Source: Escherichia coli (GTDB lineage: Bacteria > Pseudomonadota > Gammaproteobacteria > Enterobacterales > Enterobacteriaceae). From it: a stretch of 64,000 nt of DNA. The notes below the pieces were generated by a model. It was not told the DNA's origin. It searched no databases and was given only the letters and a program-made list of their open reading frames with translations. Shown in pieces: positions 3,141-45,622 of this stretch. Location: assembly GCF_016903815.1 (NCBI RefSeq), contig NZ_CP069973.1. One strand, given 5' to 3'. How positions within the stretch are numbered: position 1 is the first letter of the stretch; every line of letters starts with the position of its first letter. Both the position numbers and the translations under genes were made by a program.

Positions 3141-4655
3141 TCAGGCAACTGCCTGGCTGACTTTAGGCATCGCAAGGCTCAGTGCCTGACGCTCATCTGC
3201 CTGCTCGTGTAACAATTCACCGGCGATTTCACCTTCGCGCATCACCACAATCCGGTCGGCAACGCCGAGGACTTCAGGTAAGTCGCTGGAGGCAAACAGC
3301 ACCGCCACACCCTGCGCCGCCAGCGCATAAATTACGTTATATATTTCGTGCTTAGCGCCAACATCAATGCCGCGCGTAGGTTCATCCAGCAAAATGACCT
3401 TCATCTCTTCCGATAACCAGCGGCCCAGAATGGCTTTTTGCTGATTTCCGCCTGAGAGATTCATGATCAGTTGCTCAGCGCCCGGCGTTTTGATGTTAAG
3501 CGAACGAATGTGGTGATCGGCATTGTTTTCTTCCCAACCGTTGTTGATTACACAACCGCCGAGCACATGTTTACGTCTGGCACTGATGTTGATATTGTCG
3601 CGAACGGAGTGCACAGGAATAATGCCTTCGGCTTTGCGATCTTCCGGGCAGAGCATCATGCCTGCGGCAATGGCGTGGCTCGGTTTACGAATATCGATCG
3701 GCTGTTGGTCGATATAAACCTGACCGGCGGTAATTTGCGTACCGCCAAACATGCCTTTCATTAATTCGCTACGCCCTGCCCCGACCAGACCAAACAGACC
3801 GACAATTTCTCCACTGCGAACCGCCAGACTTATTGGCGTACGCACGCCTGGTGCTTTCACAGCATCAAGACGCAGGCGCTCCTCGCCATAACTACGCGGT
3901 TGCCAGCCGTAGATATCACCGATGTCGCGCCCGACCATCGCCTGCACCAGGGCGTCGTGGTCAACCTGCTGCATATCAGTAAAGGTTTTGACATAACGCC
4001 CATCTTTAAAGACGGTGATGGCATCGCTGAGGGCAAATATTTCTTCCATACGGTGAGAAACGTATAAGATCACCCGCCCCTCTTTTCGCAGTTCACGAAT
4101 AACGCGGAAAAGATTGTCGATTTCACGGGCAGAGAGGGAGCTGGTTGGCTCATCAAAGGCGATAATTTTGGCGTTACGCGCCAGCGCTTTGGCGATTTCA
4201 ACCATCTGCCACTGACCAATGGAGAGATATTTCAGCGGCGTGTCCGGGTCAATATCCATACCAAGATGTTTAAGTTGTAAACCCGCCTCATAATTCAGCA
4301 ATGAGCGATTCACAATGCCGCCTTTATGCGGCAGCTGGCCGAGATAGATGTTTTCCGCGACGGTCATTTCCGGCACGAGATGCAGTTCCTGGTAAATAAT
4401 CGCCACACCCGCGTTAAGTGCTGCGGTCGTGTCGGAAAAGGACATTTCCTGCCCATTAATCACTACAGAACCCGTGGTTGGCGCATAGTTGCCGCTGAGG
4501 ATTTTTAAGAGAGTTGATTTTCCTGCGCCATTTTCACCCATCAACGCATGAACCTGACCGGCATAGCAATCAAAACTAATATCCGTCAGCGCCTTAACGC
4601 CGGGAAACGTTTTACCGATGCCGCGAAATGAGAGATACGGGGTAGACTGTTGCAT
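3141..4655 (-). CDS. araG: L-arabinose ABC transporter ATP-binding protein AraG
   Basis: ORF 3141-4700(-); AraG begins [19 protein letters not shown]; two Walker A motifs ([16 protein letters not shown]). Confidence 0.92.
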
Positions 4656-11388: not shown

Positions 11389-11475
11389 TGGTACCCGGAG
11401 CGGGACTTGAACCCGCACAGCGCGAACGCCGAGGGATTTTAAATCCCTTGTGTCTACCGATTCCACCATCCGGGC
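11389..11475 (-). tRNA. leuZ: tRNA-Leu (anticodon UAA)
   Basis: Reverse complement reads GCCCGGATGGTGGAATCGGTAGACACAAGGGATTTAAAATCCC...GGGTACCA, 87 nt. Confidence 0.95.
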
Positions 11476-11487
11476 TCGGGAAGAAAG

Positions 11488-11561
11488 TGGAGGCGCGTTC
11501 CGGAGTCGAACCGGACTAGACGGATTTGCAATCCGCTACATAACCGCTTTGTTAACGCGCC
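11488..11561 (-). tRNA. cysT: tRNA-Cys (anticodon GCA)
   Basis: Reverse complement reads GGCGCGTTAACAAAGCGGTTATGTAGCGGATTGCAAATCCG...CTCCA, 74 nt. Confidence 0.95.
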
Positions 11562-11615
11562 AAATTCTTCAGGCCTTTCAGCCAGACATCCGCTTGACGC
11601 CGATGTCTTTTAAAC

Positions 11616-11691
<76 letters not shown>

Positions 11692-21362: not shown

Positions 21363-21482
21363 GATAAACAGCCCTGCGTTATATGAGTTATCGGCATGAT
21401 TATCCGTTTCTGCAGGGTTTTTAATCGGACGATTAGTGGGTGAAATGAGGGGTTATTTGGGGGTTACGCAAAAAGCCAATTG

Positions 21483-21508
21483 TAAAAAACCCCGCCGGAG
21501 CGGGGTTT
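21483..21508 (-). terminator. Rho-independent terminator of fliC
   Basis: Minus-strand hairpin caaaccccgctccggcggggtttttt just 3' of the fliC stop. Confidence 0.65.
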
Positions 21509-21525
21509 GAGAGGCATTCAGGCGA

Positions 21526-23178
21526 TTAACCCTGCAGCAGAGACAGAACCTGCTGCGGTACCTGGTTGGCTTTTGCCAGCACGGAGTTGCCTGCCTGCTG
21601 GATGATCTGCGCTTTCGACATATTGGACACTTCGGTCGCATAGTCGGCGTCCTGAATACGGGACTGCGCTTCGGACAGGTTGGTAGTGGTGTTGTTCAGG
21701 TTGGTGACTGCGGAATCCAGACGGTTTTGAACGGCACCGAGGGAGGAGCGGAATTTGTCGATCTGGCTGATAGCGTCGTCAAGAGCTGCCAGCGGATCTG
21801 ATGTTGATTCTGCTTTGCTAGTCGTATCCGTTGTTAACTTACCATCGGAACCTTTGTAGACCAGTTTACCGGCAGCCGCATCCTCAGTAGTTGTGATACT
21901 TCCATCAGCTTGTGCATAGTAAGTTGGCGGAGTATCACTGAGAACCCCATTGCTCATATAAGCGGTGTCTGCAGCAGCAGAACCTGTTGTTACGCTATAA
22001 GTCTTAGCACCTACAGTGGCAGTATAAGTGTCATTTTTTACTGCATTTGCAAATGTATTGGCATCAATGGACATTGATGCACCATCAAACGTTGTACCGT
22101 CACTGGTGAATGTTCCTTTATCAGTTTGGATGGTCGCGGCTTTAGCACCAGTAGCAGTAGCAGTAGCAAGTTTAGCCAAAGTAGCTTGTGTATCACCACC
22201 AGCATTATTTTTAGTTAAGTTACCGGTAGCATCCATATAAAGTACTGCGCCATCATCAGCAGCAGTTAAATTACCGGATTTATCGATGTTTACATCTTGA
22301 TCTTTGCCACCAATTGTAACTGTAGCTTTAGTCGTATCTCCGGCCTGAGGATTGAGGAAAGCAGCCAGATTAGCGCTGGAAATATCATCAGAAGCGGCGG
22401 AATATGAATTAGTGTCTTTATTGTAGGTATAGGTTACAGCAGCGGCTGGTGTACCAAAACCAACATCGGCGCTAGTTGTAACTTTATTTCCATCTGTGCC
22501 AGCAACAGCATTTAGAATATCTACGCTACTTGCTACAGCCGATTTGTCAGTATATTGAGTTACACCAACAGTTCCCCCTGGTGCCGCCGCAGCTGTGAAT
22601 CCAGACATATCTTTCAGGGTTGCTGCCGTATTAGCCGTTTCCCCCTTGCCGTTCACATTAAACCCATTCAGCCCCAGCGTATCAGAGTCAATTTTCTTCA
22701 GATCAATAGTAATCGTTTCGCCATCGTTCGCGCCGACCTGAATTTTCATCGAGCCATCTTTTGACAGTACGTTCACGCCGTTGAACTGGGTCTGGCCGGA
22801 TACGCGGTCAATTTCATCAAGACGGGATTTGATTTCGTCCTGAATGGAGTCCAGGTCAGAGGTGGAGTTAGTTCCGGTCGTCGCCTGAACCGTCAGTTCA
22901 CGAATACGCTGTAAGTTGTTGTTGATTTCGGACAGCGCGCCTTCGGTGGTCTGTGCAACAGAAATACCGTCGTTGGCGTTACGTGCAGCCTGAGTCAGGC
23001 CTTTAATATTAGAAGTAAAACGGTTAGCAATCGCCTGACCTGCGGCGTCATCCTTCGCGCTGTTAATACGCAAGCCAGAAGACAGACGCTCGATAGAACT
23101 CGACAGCGCAGACTGGTTCTTGTTGATATTATTTTGAGTGATCAGCGAGAGGCTGTTGGTATTAATGACTTGTGCCAT
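21526..23178 (-). CDS. fliC: Flagellin FliC, 550 aa, non-K-12 central (H-antigen) domain
   Basis: Conserved N-terminus [53 protein letters not shown] and C-terminus ...[66 protein letters not shown]; Thr/Ala/Gly-rich central region. Confidence 0.95.
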
Positions 23179-23254
23179 GATTCGTTATCCTATATTGCAA
23201 GTCGTTGATTACGTATTGGGTTTCCACCCGTCGGCTCAATCGCCGTCAACCCTG

Positions 23255-23281
23255 TTATCGTCTGTCGTAAAACAACCTTTA
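23255..23281 (-). promoter_or_regulatory. Sigma28 (class III) promoter of fliC
   Basis: Minus strand reads TAAAGGTT-N11-GACGATAA, matching the sigma28 consensus TAAAGTTT-N11-GCCGATAA. Confidence 0.75.
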
Positions 23282-29392: not shown

Positions 29393-29819
29393 ATGTGTGG
29401 ACGCTTTGCCCAATCCCAAACGCGTGAAGATTACCTTGCGCTTCTCGCGGAAGATATTGAACGCGATATTCCCTACGATCCCGAACCTATTGGCAGATAC
29501 AACGTCGCGCCGGGAACCAAAGTCCTTCTGCTCAGTGAACGTGATGAACACCTTCATCTGGATCCGGTTTTCTGGGGATATGCTCCCGGATGGTGGGATA
29601 AACCGCCGCTGATTAACGCCCGCGTAGAAACTGCCGCAACCAGTCACATGTTTAAACCGCTCTGGCAACATGGTCGGGCAATCTGTTTTGCCGATGGCTG
29701 GTTTGAGTGGAAAAAAGAAGGCGACAAAAAGCAGCCTTATTTTATCTATCGTGCTGATGGACAAGCTGTTTTTATAGCCGCGATAGGTAGCACACCGTTT
29801 GAGCGTGGTGACGAAGCCG
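29393..29819 (+). pseudogene. yedK: yedK (SRAP / abasic-site-processing protein) truncated after about codon 142
   Basis: ORF 29393-29890 matches YedK MCGRFAQSQTREDYLALLAEDIERDIPYDPEPIGRYNVAPGTK...IGSTPFERGDEA, then diverges into an unrelated 23-codon tail at the IS-remnant junction; full-length YedK is about 222 aa as I recall. Confidence 0.8.
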
Positions 29820-30101
29820 GAAGAAGTTTTTGTAAGCCCGCTCAGGGTCTTTCAGTGACTGTTGCAATGGCTGTGAGGGCGAATCTTTAAGCCATTGCGT
29901 TTCAGTGGCATTTTTCCACTCAACCAACCAGGAAGCCATTTTCCCGTAAGGGATGTATTTATTACCGGCCTCATGATTCTCATTCTGAAGCGCCAGAGCA
30001 CGATTGAAAACGAAACGACATGCGCCTGCGAAGCGCCTCATTTCACGCTCCTGTTGACCACCTGGTCTTAACCGGAATTTGAATGCCTGTAGTCGTTTCA
30101 T
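29820..30101 (-). pseudogene. tnpB: tnpB N-terminal fragment (IS605 OrfB / TnpB-family)
   Basis: Only about 95 N-terminal residues are recognisable; RuvC-like and zinc-finger regions are absent. Confidence 0.7.
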
Positions 30102-30123
30102 GGGCCAAATCATACTTTGGCCT

Positions 30124-30481
30124 ATGAAAAAAGAAACCGATATCCGACGCGGAAGGCATTGTGTTTTCCTGAAGCATGTTCACCTAGTCTTCGTTACTAA
30201 ATACCGACGTCAGATTTTTGACCATGACGCGACAGAAAAACTACGCACTTACTTTTCAAATGTATGTGCTGATTTTGAAGCTGAACGGGTTGAAATGGAT
30301 GGCGGACCAGATCACGTCCATTTGTTAATTAACTATCCTCCCAAACTGGCGATATCCAGTCTGGTAAACAGCCTCAAAGGCGTATCGAGTAGGTTACTGC
30401 GACGAGATCGACCAGATATTGCAGTCAGGTATTACGACAAAGGCGTTTTGTGGAGTCCTGGCTATTTTGTCAGTAGCTGCA
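30124..30481 (+). pseudogene. tnpA: tnpA (IS200-type Y1 transposase), probably C-terminally truncated
   Basis: HUH motif HVHLL and a tyrosine in GYF are present; the C-terminal tail after VSSC is unrelated to the family; truncation is inferred from recalled family sequences. Confidence 0.6.
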
Positions 30482-30804
30482 TCTTAACGTATCAACTAGA
30501 TTTAATAACAACGATATCCGTACCTAACCGGATATCTAATGTCATAAGCATCCCTTTAATTATCCCCTCAACCTCTTGTAACTTTCCCACTCTTGAGCTC
30601 CACATAGTCCAAACGCCGGATGCAAAAAAATCACACGTGCATTTCTGAAATTGTGATGGAGGAAGATAGTATCAATTATATGTGCTTAGAAACGTCCCCG
30701 ATTAGCGCAGAAGTCACCGGATTGTTCAGACTCAAATAGGTTGAGTATGCCGTATTTATTTTCCAAAATAAAAATCGATGCTGTTGCTCCTTCATAAAAT
30801 ACTT

Positions 30805-31602
30805 TTACTCTCTGGACGCTTTTCTTAGCTCTCTTGGTGTTATCTTAAAACGATTATGGAACCTTTCAGTAAAACGAGAAGGACACTTGTAACCATTTTC
30901 CCTGGCAATCTCGCTGATGGGTTTTACTGTCGTTTGTATAGCAGACAACGCATTATTTAACCTCACGTCGTCCAATATACTTTGAAAACTTACTCCCTCG
31001 CTTGCCAGACGGCGATGCAATGTGGAAACAGAAATGTAGAGATATCTCGCTACCTTGTTTGCTGTCCATTTTGTTCCAGGTTCGGATAGCATTAGGTTAT
31101 AACAACGACTTATTAATGATTGTTTACTATCTGATAAAAGTAAACAATTAACATGATGTGCTCCTAATGAAAGTAGAACGCCCATTGCTAAGTGTTCCTG
31201 AATTTGCGTTGAGAAGCCTCGGGAAATAGATGTTTTTAGTTGCTCCCAACAATATATTAACTCGGGGTTCTGAGGTAAGCAGAAACCTGTCGTGTTACGA
31301 ATTTGATCAGTTATCGCATAAAATTTTTGAAACTTTTCAATTAGATCAATGGGATAATAAAGCATTTCTGCAAGATAAAGACCTGCTTCTGGATAATTCG
31401 CAATATAAAATTCATATCCACAGGGAAATAATATTATCTGATTATTATCAACAGTTAGACTATGCGTCTCCCAATTGATAACTTTTTTTCCCTGACGGAT
31501 ACGACATAAAGCTGGCATAAGAGGCTTAACCCTGTGAATCTCATGATGTTTATGCATCCGTATTTCTTCAATCTTTAGGTTAGTCTTATCTTTTGCCAGC
31601 AT
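30805..31602 (-). CDS. ybcM: AraC-family transcriptional regulator (YbcM-like)
   Basis: ORF 265 aa with a C-terminal AraC-type HTH ([40 protein letters not shown]); resembles the YbcM of the K-12 DLP12 prophage as I recall it. Confidence 0.75.
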
Positions 31603-31611
31603 ACTCTTACC

Positions 31612-32163
31612 CTACTTTATCTCATAAACTGGTGTTATCTCAGCGGTTGCAATTTTATTGGCATTAAGCATATAACCAACTAACGCTCCGCTGGAATTAG
31701 AATCCACAGGAATTTTATCAGTTTTTAGAGCCCATACTTTAAACTGGTAATGATGGGGTTTATCTCCTTTGGGAGGACATGCTCCACCAAATCCTGCATA
31801 ACCAAAATCATTTCGGCCTTGAACAGCACCAGTCGGAAGTTTTGTACCATCACGTCTTCCTGCATCAGCGGGCAAATATGTTACAGTTGCTGGAATATTA
31901 GCAACAGTCCAGTGCCACCATCCACTGCCTGTAGGAGCATCTGGATCATACACAGTTACGGCAAAGCTTTTGGTGCCTTCAGGAGCACCAGACCAGGTTA
32001 ATGAGGGCGATGTATTACCACCTTCACACCCAAATCCAGAAAATACATGAGACGTTGTAAGTTGCTCTCCTGTTTTTATTTCATTACTAGTGACCTGAAA
32101 TGCTGCGGCCTGCGCAGAAAATGTTATGAATGCCAATACACTTGAAACGATAAGTTTTTTCAT
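31612..32163 (-). CDS. ybcL: PEBP/UPF0098-family periplasmic protein (YbcL-like)
   Basis: ORF 183 aa with signal peptide MKKLIVSSVLAFITFSAQA and PEBP motifs (DPDAP, GYAGFGGACPPKGDKPHHYQF). Confidence 0.8.
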   Translation of the reverse strand: MKKLIVSSVLAFITFSAQAAAFQVTSNEIKTGEQLTTSHVFSGFGCEGGNTSPSLTWSGAPEGTKSFAVTVYDPDAPTGSGWWHWTVANIPATVTYLPADAGRRDGTKLPTGAVQGRNDFGYAGFGGACPPKGDKPHHYQFKVWALKTDKIPVDSNSSGALVGYMLNANKIATAEITPVYEIK

Positions 32164-32331
32164 AAAAACCTCATTGTTGTGACCTATCGTTATTTTATTT
32201 GATGTGCCTTGATCTCATTATGCATAAAGGCGCAATGATCGCGCAAATGCAATCATAATTATAAAGGTGCCCCGAACATTAGCCATAATATGCACAAATC
32301 AGATTCCTGTTATCTCAAGGATAATTATTTT

Positions 32332-32664
32332 TTAATGCGGTGCACTTCGTGACAACAAGTTAATGACTAACACACCGGCACAAATCAACATCATGCCTAT
32401 GATAGCTGGCAGGTCCAGTCGTTGACCAAAAAATCCCCAGGAAAGCAAACTAATCAGAACGATACCGACGCCTGACCAGATAGCATAAGCAATCCCTGTA
32501 GGTATATAAGCCAGCGTCTGAGCTAATAACCAGAATGATGCACAATAGCAAATAATTGTGCCAACAGAGGGCCATAACCGTGTAAACCCCTCTGAAAACT
32601 TCATTAAGGTTGTACCAATGACCTCTGCAAGTATTGCGCCACCAAGATAAATATAAGGGTTCAT
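32332..32664 (-). CDS. emrE: Small multidrug resistance (SMR) efflux protein EmrE
   Basis: ORF 32332-32844(-); protein from MNPYIYLGGAILAEVIGTTLMKFSEGFTRLWPSVG is 110 aa and near-identical to EmrE, including the conserved Glu14. Confidence 0.88.
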   Translation of the reverse strand: MNPYIYLGGAILAEVIGTTLMKFSEGFTRLWPSVGTIICYCASFWLLAQTLAYIPTGIAYAIWSGVGIVLISLLSWGFFGQRLDLPAIIGMMLICAGVLVINLLSRSAPH

Positions 32665-33007
32665 AGCATATTCTTTCCTGTTCATACTGGAGAGAATTGT
32701 ACTACAGTTTGAACACAACTCACCGTTTTCATCCTGGTGTATGTGTATCCAGGGGGCTCTGGCGTGGCAAGAGATAAAGGCAGGAACAATAATGATCAGA
32801 AGGAACCCCAGGCTAACGAATGAGTTCACTCTTCCTGGGAGCAAAGCGAAGACAAAACATGTTATCGCGTTTACGGATCGTGGATGGCAGAAAACTTTCA
32901 GGATCAGGTATCCATTTTAAACCAGAAATTGAGTGAGTTTGCCCCATCCATGCCCCACGCTGTGGGACCGGATATAATAAACAAGCATAGTCAACAGGTT
33001 ACAAAAC

Positions 33008-45534: not shown

Positions 45535-45622
45535 AAAATCCCGACCCTGAGGGGGTCGGGATGAAACTTGCTTAAGCAAGAAGCACTTAAAAAATTCGTT
45601 ACACCAGGAAATCTGATGTGTT
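45535..45622 (-). ncRNA. dsrA: Small regulatory RNA DsrA (Hfq-dependent; activates rpoS translation, represses hns)
   Basis: Reverse complement reads AACACATCAGATTTCCTGGTGTAACGAATTTTTTAAGTGCTTCTTGCTTAAGCAAGTTTCATCCCGACCCCCTCAGGGTCGGGATTT, including the terminator hairpin. Confidence 0.92.

Follow-up and report, generated by a model that had tools for sequence, protein, structure and literature searches.

Which flagellin, and with it which H antigen, is encoded by the fliC gene in the 64,000-nucleotide stretch of Escherichia coli DNA analyzed here (the window)? A sequence-only reading had described a 550-residue fliC with canonical D0/D1 ends and a central region, roughly residues 180–450, that is rich in Thr, Ala, Gly and Asp and differs from the 498-residue K-12 flagellin, and had held that the serotype could not be assigned from sequence. 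The identity of the gene is borne out by the open reading frame and the family models: the minus strand, which was left unstated in that reading and which carries the fliC features given below with coordinates, holds an intact ATG-to-stop frame of 550 codons plus stop (21526..23178). The product matches PF00669 (Flagellin_N) at residues 5–140 (E 2.8e-46; 157.5 bits against a cut-off of 26.6), PF12445 (FliC middle domain) at residues 338–454 and PF00700 (Flagellin_C) at residues 464–548 (E 5.5e-32; 110.4 bits against a cut-off of 23), as well as the NCBIfam model NF005953, “FliC/FljB family flagellin” (778.6 bits against a curated cut-off of 619). Near-identity to flagellins in the PDB and nucleotide matches further identify the coding sequence as that of an H6-type flagellin. 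The gene order is K-12-like, with dcyD, tcyJ, fliZ and fliA downstream of fliC and divergent fliD/fliS/fliT, then amyA, upstream.

Flanked in this way by fliA on one side and divergent fliDST on the other, fliC lies behind a sigma-28 promoter. The 265-bp fliD–fliC intergenic region differs from that of K-12 at 2 positions (99% identical), with the promoter motif unchanged. Read by eye and by its identity to K-12, the class 3 promoter is TAAAGGTT-N11-GACGATAA (23255..23281), a call that is based on the sigma-28 (FliA) consensus, which we take to be TAAAGTTT-N11-GCCGATAA; a promoter scan at fliC covering sigma-70 sites only gave nothing useful. A Shine-Dalgarno sequence, AGGA, identical to that of K-12, is located 9 nt upstream of the ATG (23188..23191), and the gene is followed by an intrinsic terminator, CCCCGC-TCCG-GCGGGG and then TTTTTT (21484..21505), which was also matched on the minus strand by a terminator scan (21501–21489). 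Transcription from this class 3 promoter would be by FliA. The flagellar neighbors fliA, fliZ and fliDST are intact in the window, which also has open reading frames of the sizes expected for fliF–fliR. Export of flagellin uses the type III system of the flagellum, FliD caps the growing filament, and the product of the neighboring fliS gene acts as chaperone for the C-terminal end of FliC.

Comparison with FliC of K-12 MG1655 (b1923, 498 residues; H48) divides the protein into three parts. In the N-terminal part (residues 1–175; 22654..23178), which comprises the D0/D1 helices and the start of the beta-hairpin, 163 of 175 residues are identical (93%), and in the C-terminal part (residues 466–550 plus stop; 21526..21783), which contains the D1/D0 helices, residues 476–550 are 100% identical, so that the description of the ends as canonical stands. 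In windows of 25 residues, identity is 0.72–1.0 up to residue 175, falls to 0.08–0.32 for residues 176–450, and is 0.52 for 451–475 and 1.0 for 476–550; BLASTP against K-12 FliC aligned residues 1–175 alone. The intervening hypervariable centre (residues 176–465; 21784..22653), assigned to the outer domains D2–D4 and to the antigenic determinant by its low identity to K-12, its distribution among genomes and its Foldseek matches, lies close to where it had been placed and has the composition that had been reported: residues 176–460 are 17.5% Thr, 17.9% Ala, 10.2% Gly and 9.5% Asp, and the four residues together make up 55% of the centre versus 30–31% of the conserved ends. The G+C content is 0.445 in the centre against 0.516 in the ends. 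An AlphaFold model of the protein (mean pLDDT 81.4) has long helices at residues 2–101 and 106–129. The two conserved terminal parts form the D0/D1 core of the filament, into which FliC subunits would polymerize by the thousands.

The best match of the protein in both sequence and fold is the flagellin of enteropathogenic E. coli (EPEC) O127:H6 strain E2348/69, whose filament is the subject of PDB entries 7SQJ and 7SN7 (PMC8931119; also 8CVI and 8CYE). This is the same gene at the same type of locus, and it matches over its full length (1087 bits) with 540 of 548 aligned residues identical, the differences being eight substitutions and one 2-residue insertion. Of the substitutions, given as window to E2348/69, T100S, T106D, S139A and E154Q lie outside the centre, and T228A, G280R, L337V and T363A fall, like the insertion, within the antigenic centre, which thus has the H6 form with four substitutions and one 2-residue insertion. 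According to Hu and Reeves, the forms of the hypervariable region in E. coli map one-to-one to H antigens, with the exception of the H1/H12 pair (PMC7018530). The near-match to a serologically defined O127:H6 flagellin, together with this one-form-one-antigen rule, leads us to assign the H type as H6, contrary to the view that sequence could not provide it. Two things underlie the assignment, the O127:H6 reference and the published typing of strains that carry the identical allele; the source names on records of the exact protein are generic (“FliC/FljB family flagellin”) and give no H type. Taken as a whole, the best explanation, to which we give a probability of about 0.93, is that the gene is fliC for a flagellin of the H6 antigenic type and of the kind that forms an outer-domain sheath.

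The predicted structure is in line with this. Foldseek, run with the AlphaFold model, places 7sn7_A first (E 1.2e-64), followed by 7sn4_A (2.4e-44), 9n59_A (8.6e-43) and 7sqd_A (2.1e-31); the H7, Azotobacter and Achromobacter sheath-type flagellins thus rank after the H6 structure, with Salmonella flagellins behind at about 1e-27, a ranking that indicates three outer domains with the H6/H7 fold. In whole-chain comparison with 7SN7 the model has a global TM-score of 0.39, and values across the top matches are 0.39–0.50, which we tentatively attribute to differing relative orientations of the domains and not to differing folds. Flagellin domains can hinge against one another; for this reason the global TM-score was not counted for or against the fold, and given these low values support for the fold was drawn from the local 3Di/sequence score. 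Solved structures of an outer-domain sheath are available for few filaments; H6 is one of them, which allows the allele to be interpreted directly on a structure. By homology to the EPEC O127:H6 filament, the centre would fold as outer domains D2–D4, and D2–D2 and D4–D4 pairing between subunits would generate a tetrameric outer-domain sheath with a seam. These outer domains are also the probable bearers of the H6 epitopes.

The closest relative of a different H type considered here is EHEC O157:H7 FliC (PDB 7SN4, 585 residues), which shares the sheath-forming three-outer-domain architecture and a pair of Asn residues in D4. It aligns to the window protein over the whole length in one stretch (542 bits), but represents a different H antigen, with 57% identity over the full-length Foldseek alignment and a centre that aligns weakly by phmmer. 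In a PDB search with the region around a repeat in D4 described below, a 91-residue query missed H7, whereas a 211-residue query reached it and gave the correspondence to H7 N319/N323: N320 and N324 of the window protein, in GNLTKNNAG (residues 319–327; 22198..22224), align to N319 and N323 in GNLTTNNAG of 7SN4, and the segment is identical in EPEC H6 and the window protein. The two Asn residues lie in the D4 dimer interface and are conserved in H6, and in H7 their mutation disrupts the sheath and leaves motility impaired (PMC8931119). The sheaths themselves differ, being dimeric without a seam in H7 and tetrameric with a seam in H6 (PMC8931119). The experiments in which the sheath was seen to stabilize an intermediate waveform and to prolong tumbles were carried out on H7 (PMC8931119).

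Of 5426 complete E. coli genomes, 233 carry a centre of the H6 form (at least 96.8% identity), always in chromosomal fliC; at that sensitivity it is absent from the rest. At least 40 complete genomes have the entire gene at 100% identity, annotated “FliC/FljB family flagellin”, and the exact protein occurs on at least 1000 public contigs. Among the genomes with the identical gene is WCHEC96200, which belongs to ST405 and phylogroup D (PMC5762679), and ST405 has been typed in silico as O102:H6 (PMC6331395). AR_0015 and strain 7/2 are further carriers of the allele. In addition, 25 kb of flanking sequence are 100% identical to several genomes of the same fliC background, carrying either the identical 3-copy gene or one that differs solely in repeat number. 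An ST405-like (O102:H6) clone is the probable source of the window; H6 is half of the serotype and, together with the identical flanks, points to this globally spread multidrug-resistant lineage. Other H6 alleles carry 0–3 substitutions in about 900 nt of the centre. In a second H6 background, the conserved ends contain 40 differences and the centre 3 in 899 nt, 36 of the 43 changes being synonymous; this pattern marks recombination whose end-points lie within the conserved regions.

Three other readings of the H type were weighed against H6. Identity of the centre with the H48 form of K-12 was tested directly and is ruled out: nothing beyond the shared conserved ends speaks for it, and the 8–32% identity across residues 176–450 and the restricted BLASTP alignment upheld the earlier claim that the centre is unlike K-12. 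K-12 FliC (PDB 8CXM) has the locus and promoter region in common with the window gene but is 52 residues shorter; its outer domains have a Salmonella-like fold, form no sheath and lack significant homology to those of H6 or H7 (Kreutzberger paper, PMC8931119). A second reading, that the four substitutions in the centre, together with the added Ala-Thr, make the allele a new or unnamed H subtype serologically distinct from H6, has a precedent in H1 and H12, which count as different H types despite 97.5% identity of their genes (PMC4753304), so that high identity is no guarantee of a shared serotype. Yet only for H1/H12 do two H antigens of E. coli share one hypervariable form (PMC7018530), strains of the lineage bearing the allele are reported as H6 by in silico typing (PMC6331395), and the centre is almost the same as that of the second H6 background; we consider the probability of a separate subtype close to negligible. 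It is also conceivable, if very improbable, that an intact H6 fliC is not the displayed antigen, the strain being non-motile or taking its flagellin from another locus. Some E. coli express flkA, fllA, flmA or flnA flagellin beside an inactive fliC (PMC7018530), the window is known from sequence alone, and those loci lie outside the 64 kb. In such cases, however, fliC is inactivated, and none of the H types ascribed to the alternative loci is H6 (PMC7018530), whereas here the open reading frame, promoter, ribosome-binding site and terminator are intact and the flagellar neighbors listed above are present. The H6 assignment is of use for annotation and epidemiology; the biology is not new. This is a known gene and a known, ordinary H6 allele, and the only mildly unusual point is a short in-frame repeat of 6 bases, present in different numbers of copies in different strains.

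The repeat, a perfect (GCTACT)x3 encoding (Ala-Thr)3 at residues 338–343 (22150..22167), is reported by TRF as period 6 with 3.3 copies and 100% matches, and is unique within the window, where 0 are expected by chance. It lies 14 residues past the D4 dimer-site motif, and in the AlphaFold model it sits where a short helix ends and runs into a loop. E2348/69, on whose H6 filaments the sheath was seen (PMC8931119), carries 2 copies in a flagellin of 548 residues, so the window protein differs from it in length by one additional Ala-Thr; the extra GCTACT was most likely gained by replication slippage. At the corresponding position of the alignment, H7 FliC lacks an Ala-Thr repeat. Other H6 alleles have the repeat at the same position: among the 233 complete genomes with the H6 centre, copy numbers of 2 (M-17), 3, 4, 5 (AR_0017), 10 (GN06667) and 15 (FDAARGOS_1370) were read directly in the gene, and 8 was inferred from match spans. 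Flagellin length varies with the repeat, from 548 to 574 residues. Three of the variants read directly show no other difference from the window gene; because some copy-number variants are otherwise identical genes, we regard the tract as a slippage-prone repeat. HS-02, with an 861-bp span, was rejected as a further length class: its fliC is annotated as frameshifted and the differences are clustered, which points to a probable problem of assembly quality.

Does this variation reflect selection? Copy number may be tuned, as in a contingency-type locus, to modulate antigenicity, phage recognition or sheath geometry, instead of being neutral slippage noise. The range from 2 to 15 copies, every one in frame and with an intact open reading frame, would suit such a role, as would the placement of the tract shortly after the D4 dimer-site motif at a helix-to-loop junction, the recurrence of the variation on two different fliC backgrounds, and the occurrence of 3 versus 5 copies in genomes whose adjacent 25 kb are 100% identical. 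Hexamer changes are, however, in frame by nature, so intact open reading frames are no evidence of selection; perfect repeats mutate fast without any selection, and about 85% of the genomes with the H6 centre are confined to 2–4 copies. Among the papers covered by a literature search, none was found to mention a GCTACT, hexanucleotide or VNTR repeat of fliC. On balance we judge selection on copy number to be unlikely. Quite doubtful, too, is the proposal that (GCTACT)n in D4 acts as a contingency-type hypermutable site at which 2 to at least 15 Ala-Thr units reshape a surface loop. If it did, the filament could change in its H6 epitopes, in how flagellotropic phages recognize it, or in the geometry and stability of its outer-domain sheath, and clones such as ST405 would gain rapid and reversible variation of the filament surface with the H type unchanged. 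Within H6 clones, the repeat could provide a fast marker for typing, and it might also influence the sheath.

Finally, the region downstream of fliC departs from that of K-12. Alignment with K-12 shows a short fliC–fliA spacer of 163 bp (21363..21525) and a fliC 3′UTR of only about 40 nt, without the REP-containing segment of roughly 160 bp by which the K-12 3′UTR is longer and in which the K-12 sRNA FliX (b4827) is annotated. Rfam at gathering thresholds found no family in the fliC 3′UTR, and DsrA and five tRNAs in the window in total, a result that has no bearing on FliX. FliX-dependent flagellar control as in K-12 may not apply unchanged in a lineage without the REP-containing 3′UTR. The short form of the 3′UTR is present in 200 of the 5426 complete genomes.

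The 550-aa ATG-to-stop open reading frame at 21526–23178 is found in a mechanical ORF list of the window with exactly the coordinates and length that the sequence-only reading had proposed for fliC, to which we add the strand (minus). Pfam models place Flagellin_N at residues 5–140, Flagellin_C at 464–548 and the enterobacterial ‘FliC’ middle domain (PF12445) at 338–454, and the protein reaches 778.6 bits against the NCBIfam model NF005953 (‘FliC/FljB family flagellin’), whose curated cut-off is 619. The neighbourhood has the K-12 arrangement, with dcyD, tcyJ (fliY), fliZ and fliA 3′ of the gene on the same strand, and divergent fliD, fliS and fliT followed by amyA on the 5′ side. On every sequence measure applied, the gene belongs to the flagellin family.

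The flagellin was compared with K-12 MG1655 FliC (498 aa, b1923). The terminal regions are canonical, as had been proposed, with 163 of 175 residues identical in the segment 1–175 and 100% identity over residues 476–550. Across residues 176–450, identity falls to 8–32% per 25-residue window in a forced global alignment. Thr (17.5%), Ala (17.9%), Gly (10.2%) and Asp (9.5%) together make up 55% of residues 176–460 vs. 30–31% of the conserved ends, and G+C is 0.445 in the centre vs. 0.516 in the ends, so that the earlier description of a Thr/Ala/Gly/Asp-rich centre unlike that of K-12 holds. The K-12 reference flagellin is of type H48 (PMC548302). With so low an identity in the centre, H48 identity of the window flagellin is rejected; the central region is not the K-12 allele, in agreement with the sequence-only reading.

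In a sequence search of the entire PDB, 7SQJ (548 aa) and 7SN7 (546 aa) match almost perfectly over the full length; both are entries for the enteropathogenic E. coli O127:H6 flagellar filament (Kreutzberger et al. 2022, PMC8931119). Much weaker matches were obtained for 7SN4 (585 aa, 542 bits), which the same study assigns to EHEC O157:H7 (its entry 7SQD being from Achromobacter), and for 8CXM (498 aa, 462 bits in two separate stretches), labelled as the K-12 filament core in the Foldseek listing. Relative to the O127:H6 flagellin, the window protein carries a two-residue insertion (Ala-Thr) and eight substitutions (window residue first): T100S, T106D, S139A and E154Q in D1, and T228A, G280R, L337V and T363A in the centre. 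Even close identity can leave the H type undecided, as between H1 and H12, whose genes share 97.5% identity (PMC4753304); H1/H12 is, however, the sole exception to the rule that E. coli hypervariable-region forms represent single H antigens (Hu and Reeves, PMC7018530). Because of the near-match to O127:H6 and this correspondence between form and antigen, we assign the window fliC as an H6 allele, carrying the H6 hypervariable form by sequence; the earlier view that the serotype cannot be assigned from sequence is wrong in practice.

In the H6 filament, the central region forms the outer domains D2, D3 and D4. Pairing occurs between the D2 domains of subunits spaced 11 or 6 positions apart and between the D4 domains of subunits spaced 22 apart, and builds a tetrameric sheath of outer domains with a seam (PMC8931119). 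In H7, mutation of N319 and N323 at the D4 dimer site disrupts the sheath and impairs motility, and the sheath itself confers stability on an intermediate waveform and lengthens tumbles (PMC8931119). An adhesin role has also been described for H6 and H7 filaments. An AlphaFold model of the window FliC, based on 28 sequences, has a mean pLDDT of 81.4, with most of the outer region at 73–93. Foldseek ranks 7sn7_A first (E 1.2e-64), followed by the H7, Azotobacter and Achromobacter flagellins, all before the Salmonella type; the global TM-scores are low (0.39–0.50), which we attribute to inter-domain hinges. The D4 dimer-site motif, G319-N-L-T-K-N-N-A-G327, is identical in EPEC H6 and aligns with GN319LTTN323NAG in EHEC H7. 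Fold and motif place the window FliC in the sheath-forming H6/H7 type, and we infer on good grounds, by analogy with the H6 filament, that this allele would form a sheath. A search with residues 170–470 against 1.84 billion 50%-identity cluster representatives yields only 37 matches (E ≤ 1e-3), several of them H6 fragments, and as judged from this search the H6/H7-type outer-domain family is narrow, with very few relatives.

H6 genes occur on two backgrounds. Compared with the M-17 gene, representative of the second background (loci L005, L007 and L009), the window gene has 43 substitutions, 36 of them synonymous; 40 fall within the 748 nt of conserved ends and 3 within the 899 nt of the centre (Fisher’s exact p = 2.8e-11). 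The differences in the ends are located at gene nt 138–534 and 1440–1620 (window 22645–23041 and 21559–21739). Identity to K-12 is 99% in the upstream intergenic region and only 88.6% in the first 525 nt of the gene. Hu and Reeves (PMC7018530) explain the same pattern in H7 by recombination that switches the serotype and has its end-points inside the conserved regions. The two H6 backgrounds likewise indicate recombination end-points inside these regions, and the mosaic pattern of fliC is already known biology.

A perfect tandem hexamer, (GCTACT)3, at 22150–22167 (minus strand) encodes three Ala-Thr pairs after Leu337, and the Ala-Thr insertion relative to O127:H6 corresponds to one extra copy at the DNA level. 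We retrieved eight other H6 fliC genes (L003–L010) and read the repeat directly. The copy number is 2 in 2012C-4221 (548 aa), 4 in YDC107 (552 aa) and 5 in AR_0372 (554 aa), all with no other substitution relative to the window gene, and 15 in FDAARGOS_1370 (574 aa), with one; on the second background, with 43 other substitutions each, it is 2 in M-17 (548 aa), 5 in AR_0017 (554 aa) and 10 in GN06667 (564 aa). The reading frame is intact in all seven. The eighth gene, from HS-02 (NZ_CP172818.1; 2 copies), is annotated as frameshifted and was left out; it has three single-base indels and clustered substitutions, and looks like an assembly error instead of a true pseudogene. The spans of the matches point to 8 copies in two more genomes and, among 60 taken at even intervals from the 233 genomes with the H6 centre, to 2 copies in 28, 3 in 15, 4 in 9, 5 in 6 and 10 in 1. 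A 118-nt probe gave identity bands of 62, 36, 133 and 2 genomes, which arithmetic on the gapped identities reads respectively as 3 copies together with split long alleles, 4 copies, 2 or 5 copies, and 6–7 copies; the two estimates of the distribution agree.

AR_0372 has five copies despite an adjacent 25 kb that is 100% identical to the window. Copy number thus turns over more quickly than point substitutions build up, the behaviour expected of replication slippage. In the AlphaFold model, the tract takes up the C-terminal end of a short helix (334–340) and continues into a loop (341–347), 14 residues past N324 of the D4 motif. Neutral slippage is a far more likely explanation of the copy number than selection. 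The repeat is not described in the literature searched, which did not extend to the older fliC literature likeliest to mention it, and we regard the polymorphism as a minor lead.

The fliC–fliA spacer (21363–21525) is 163 bp long, whereas that of K-12 spans 320 bp (3791–4110 of the retrieved locus) and contains REP elements and the annotated sRNA FliX (b4827). The window spacer lacks a REP-containing segment of ~160 bp, the source of FliX, and differs in the 40-odd nt between the fliC stop codon and the terminator; from the terminator T-run onwards, including the fliA promoter region, it is again near-identical to K-12. FliX is a processed RNA of ~200 nt originating from the fliC 3′UTR, and FliX-S (~100 nt, including one REP) represses flagellin and ribosomal-protein mRNAs (Melamed et al., PMC10578931). 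The short 3′UTR form is present in 200 of 5426 complete genomes. Among H6 genes, it accompanies the window type, and the long spacer the M-17 type. The missing FliX region is likewise a minor lead.

The fliD–fliC intergenic region (265 bp) has only two differences from K-12, and contains an AGGA Shine-Dalgarno sequence and, at 23281–23255 on the minus strand, the motif TAAAGGTT-N11-GACGATAA, which we take to be a FliA (sigma-28) class 3 promoter. The reading frame of the window fliC is intact, and ~20 nt past its stop codon a CCCCGC/GCGGGG hairpin precedes a T6 run. The flagellin N-terminus carries the type III export signal, the C-terminal helices are bound by FliS, and FliD caps the growing filament; residues 89–99 of D1 presumably constitute the TLR5 contact region. 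The window carries fliA, fliZ and fliDST, together with ORFs sized as expected for fliF–fliR.

The H6 centre is found in 233 of 5426 complete genomes (4.3%), in single copy and on the chromosome every time, at ≥96.8% identity. The whole gene is 100% nucleotide-identical in at least 40 complete genomes and the exact 550-aa protein occurs on at least 1000 public contigs; the allele is abundant in public data and nothing about it is new in kind. Among the genomes with an identical gene is WCHEC96200, of ST405 and phylogroup D (PMC5762679), and ST405 has been typed in silico as O102:H6 (PMC6331395). A 25-kb stretch of the window downstream of the flagellar genes is 100% identical in several genomes with the same fliC background (AR_0015, AR_0006, 222, 103, 631 and others), which have either the identical three-copy gene or a difference in repeat number alone. 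The MLST genes lie outside the window, which very probably derives from an ST405 (O102:H6)-like lineage.

Before fliE in the window, the region 29393–32844 contains a yedK-like ORF (29393–29890; only the first 143 of 222 model positions matched), an adjoining IS200/IS605-family transposase ORF (30079–30648), an AraC-family regulator, a YbcL-like kinase-inhibitor homologue and an EmrE-type SMR efflux gene, a content presumably unlike that of the corresponding K-12 region. At the window end, a tRNA-Asn gene (61784–61859) is followed by a 308-aa integrase-like ORF (62010–62936), matching only positions 159–396 of a 413-position model, and by a salicylate-synthase gene (63130–63993, minus strand; TIGR03494, 506.7 bits) that covers only positions 134–425 of 425 and probably runs on past the window end. 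The segment 61784–64000 looks like the yersiniabactin high-pathogenicity island inserted at asnT, with an integrase that is possibly truncated. The DsrA sRNA (45536–45622, minus strand; 102.5 bits), a tRNA-Leu/Cys/Gly cluster (11389–11691) and tRNA-Ser(CGA) (60703–60792) are located where K-12 synteny predicts.
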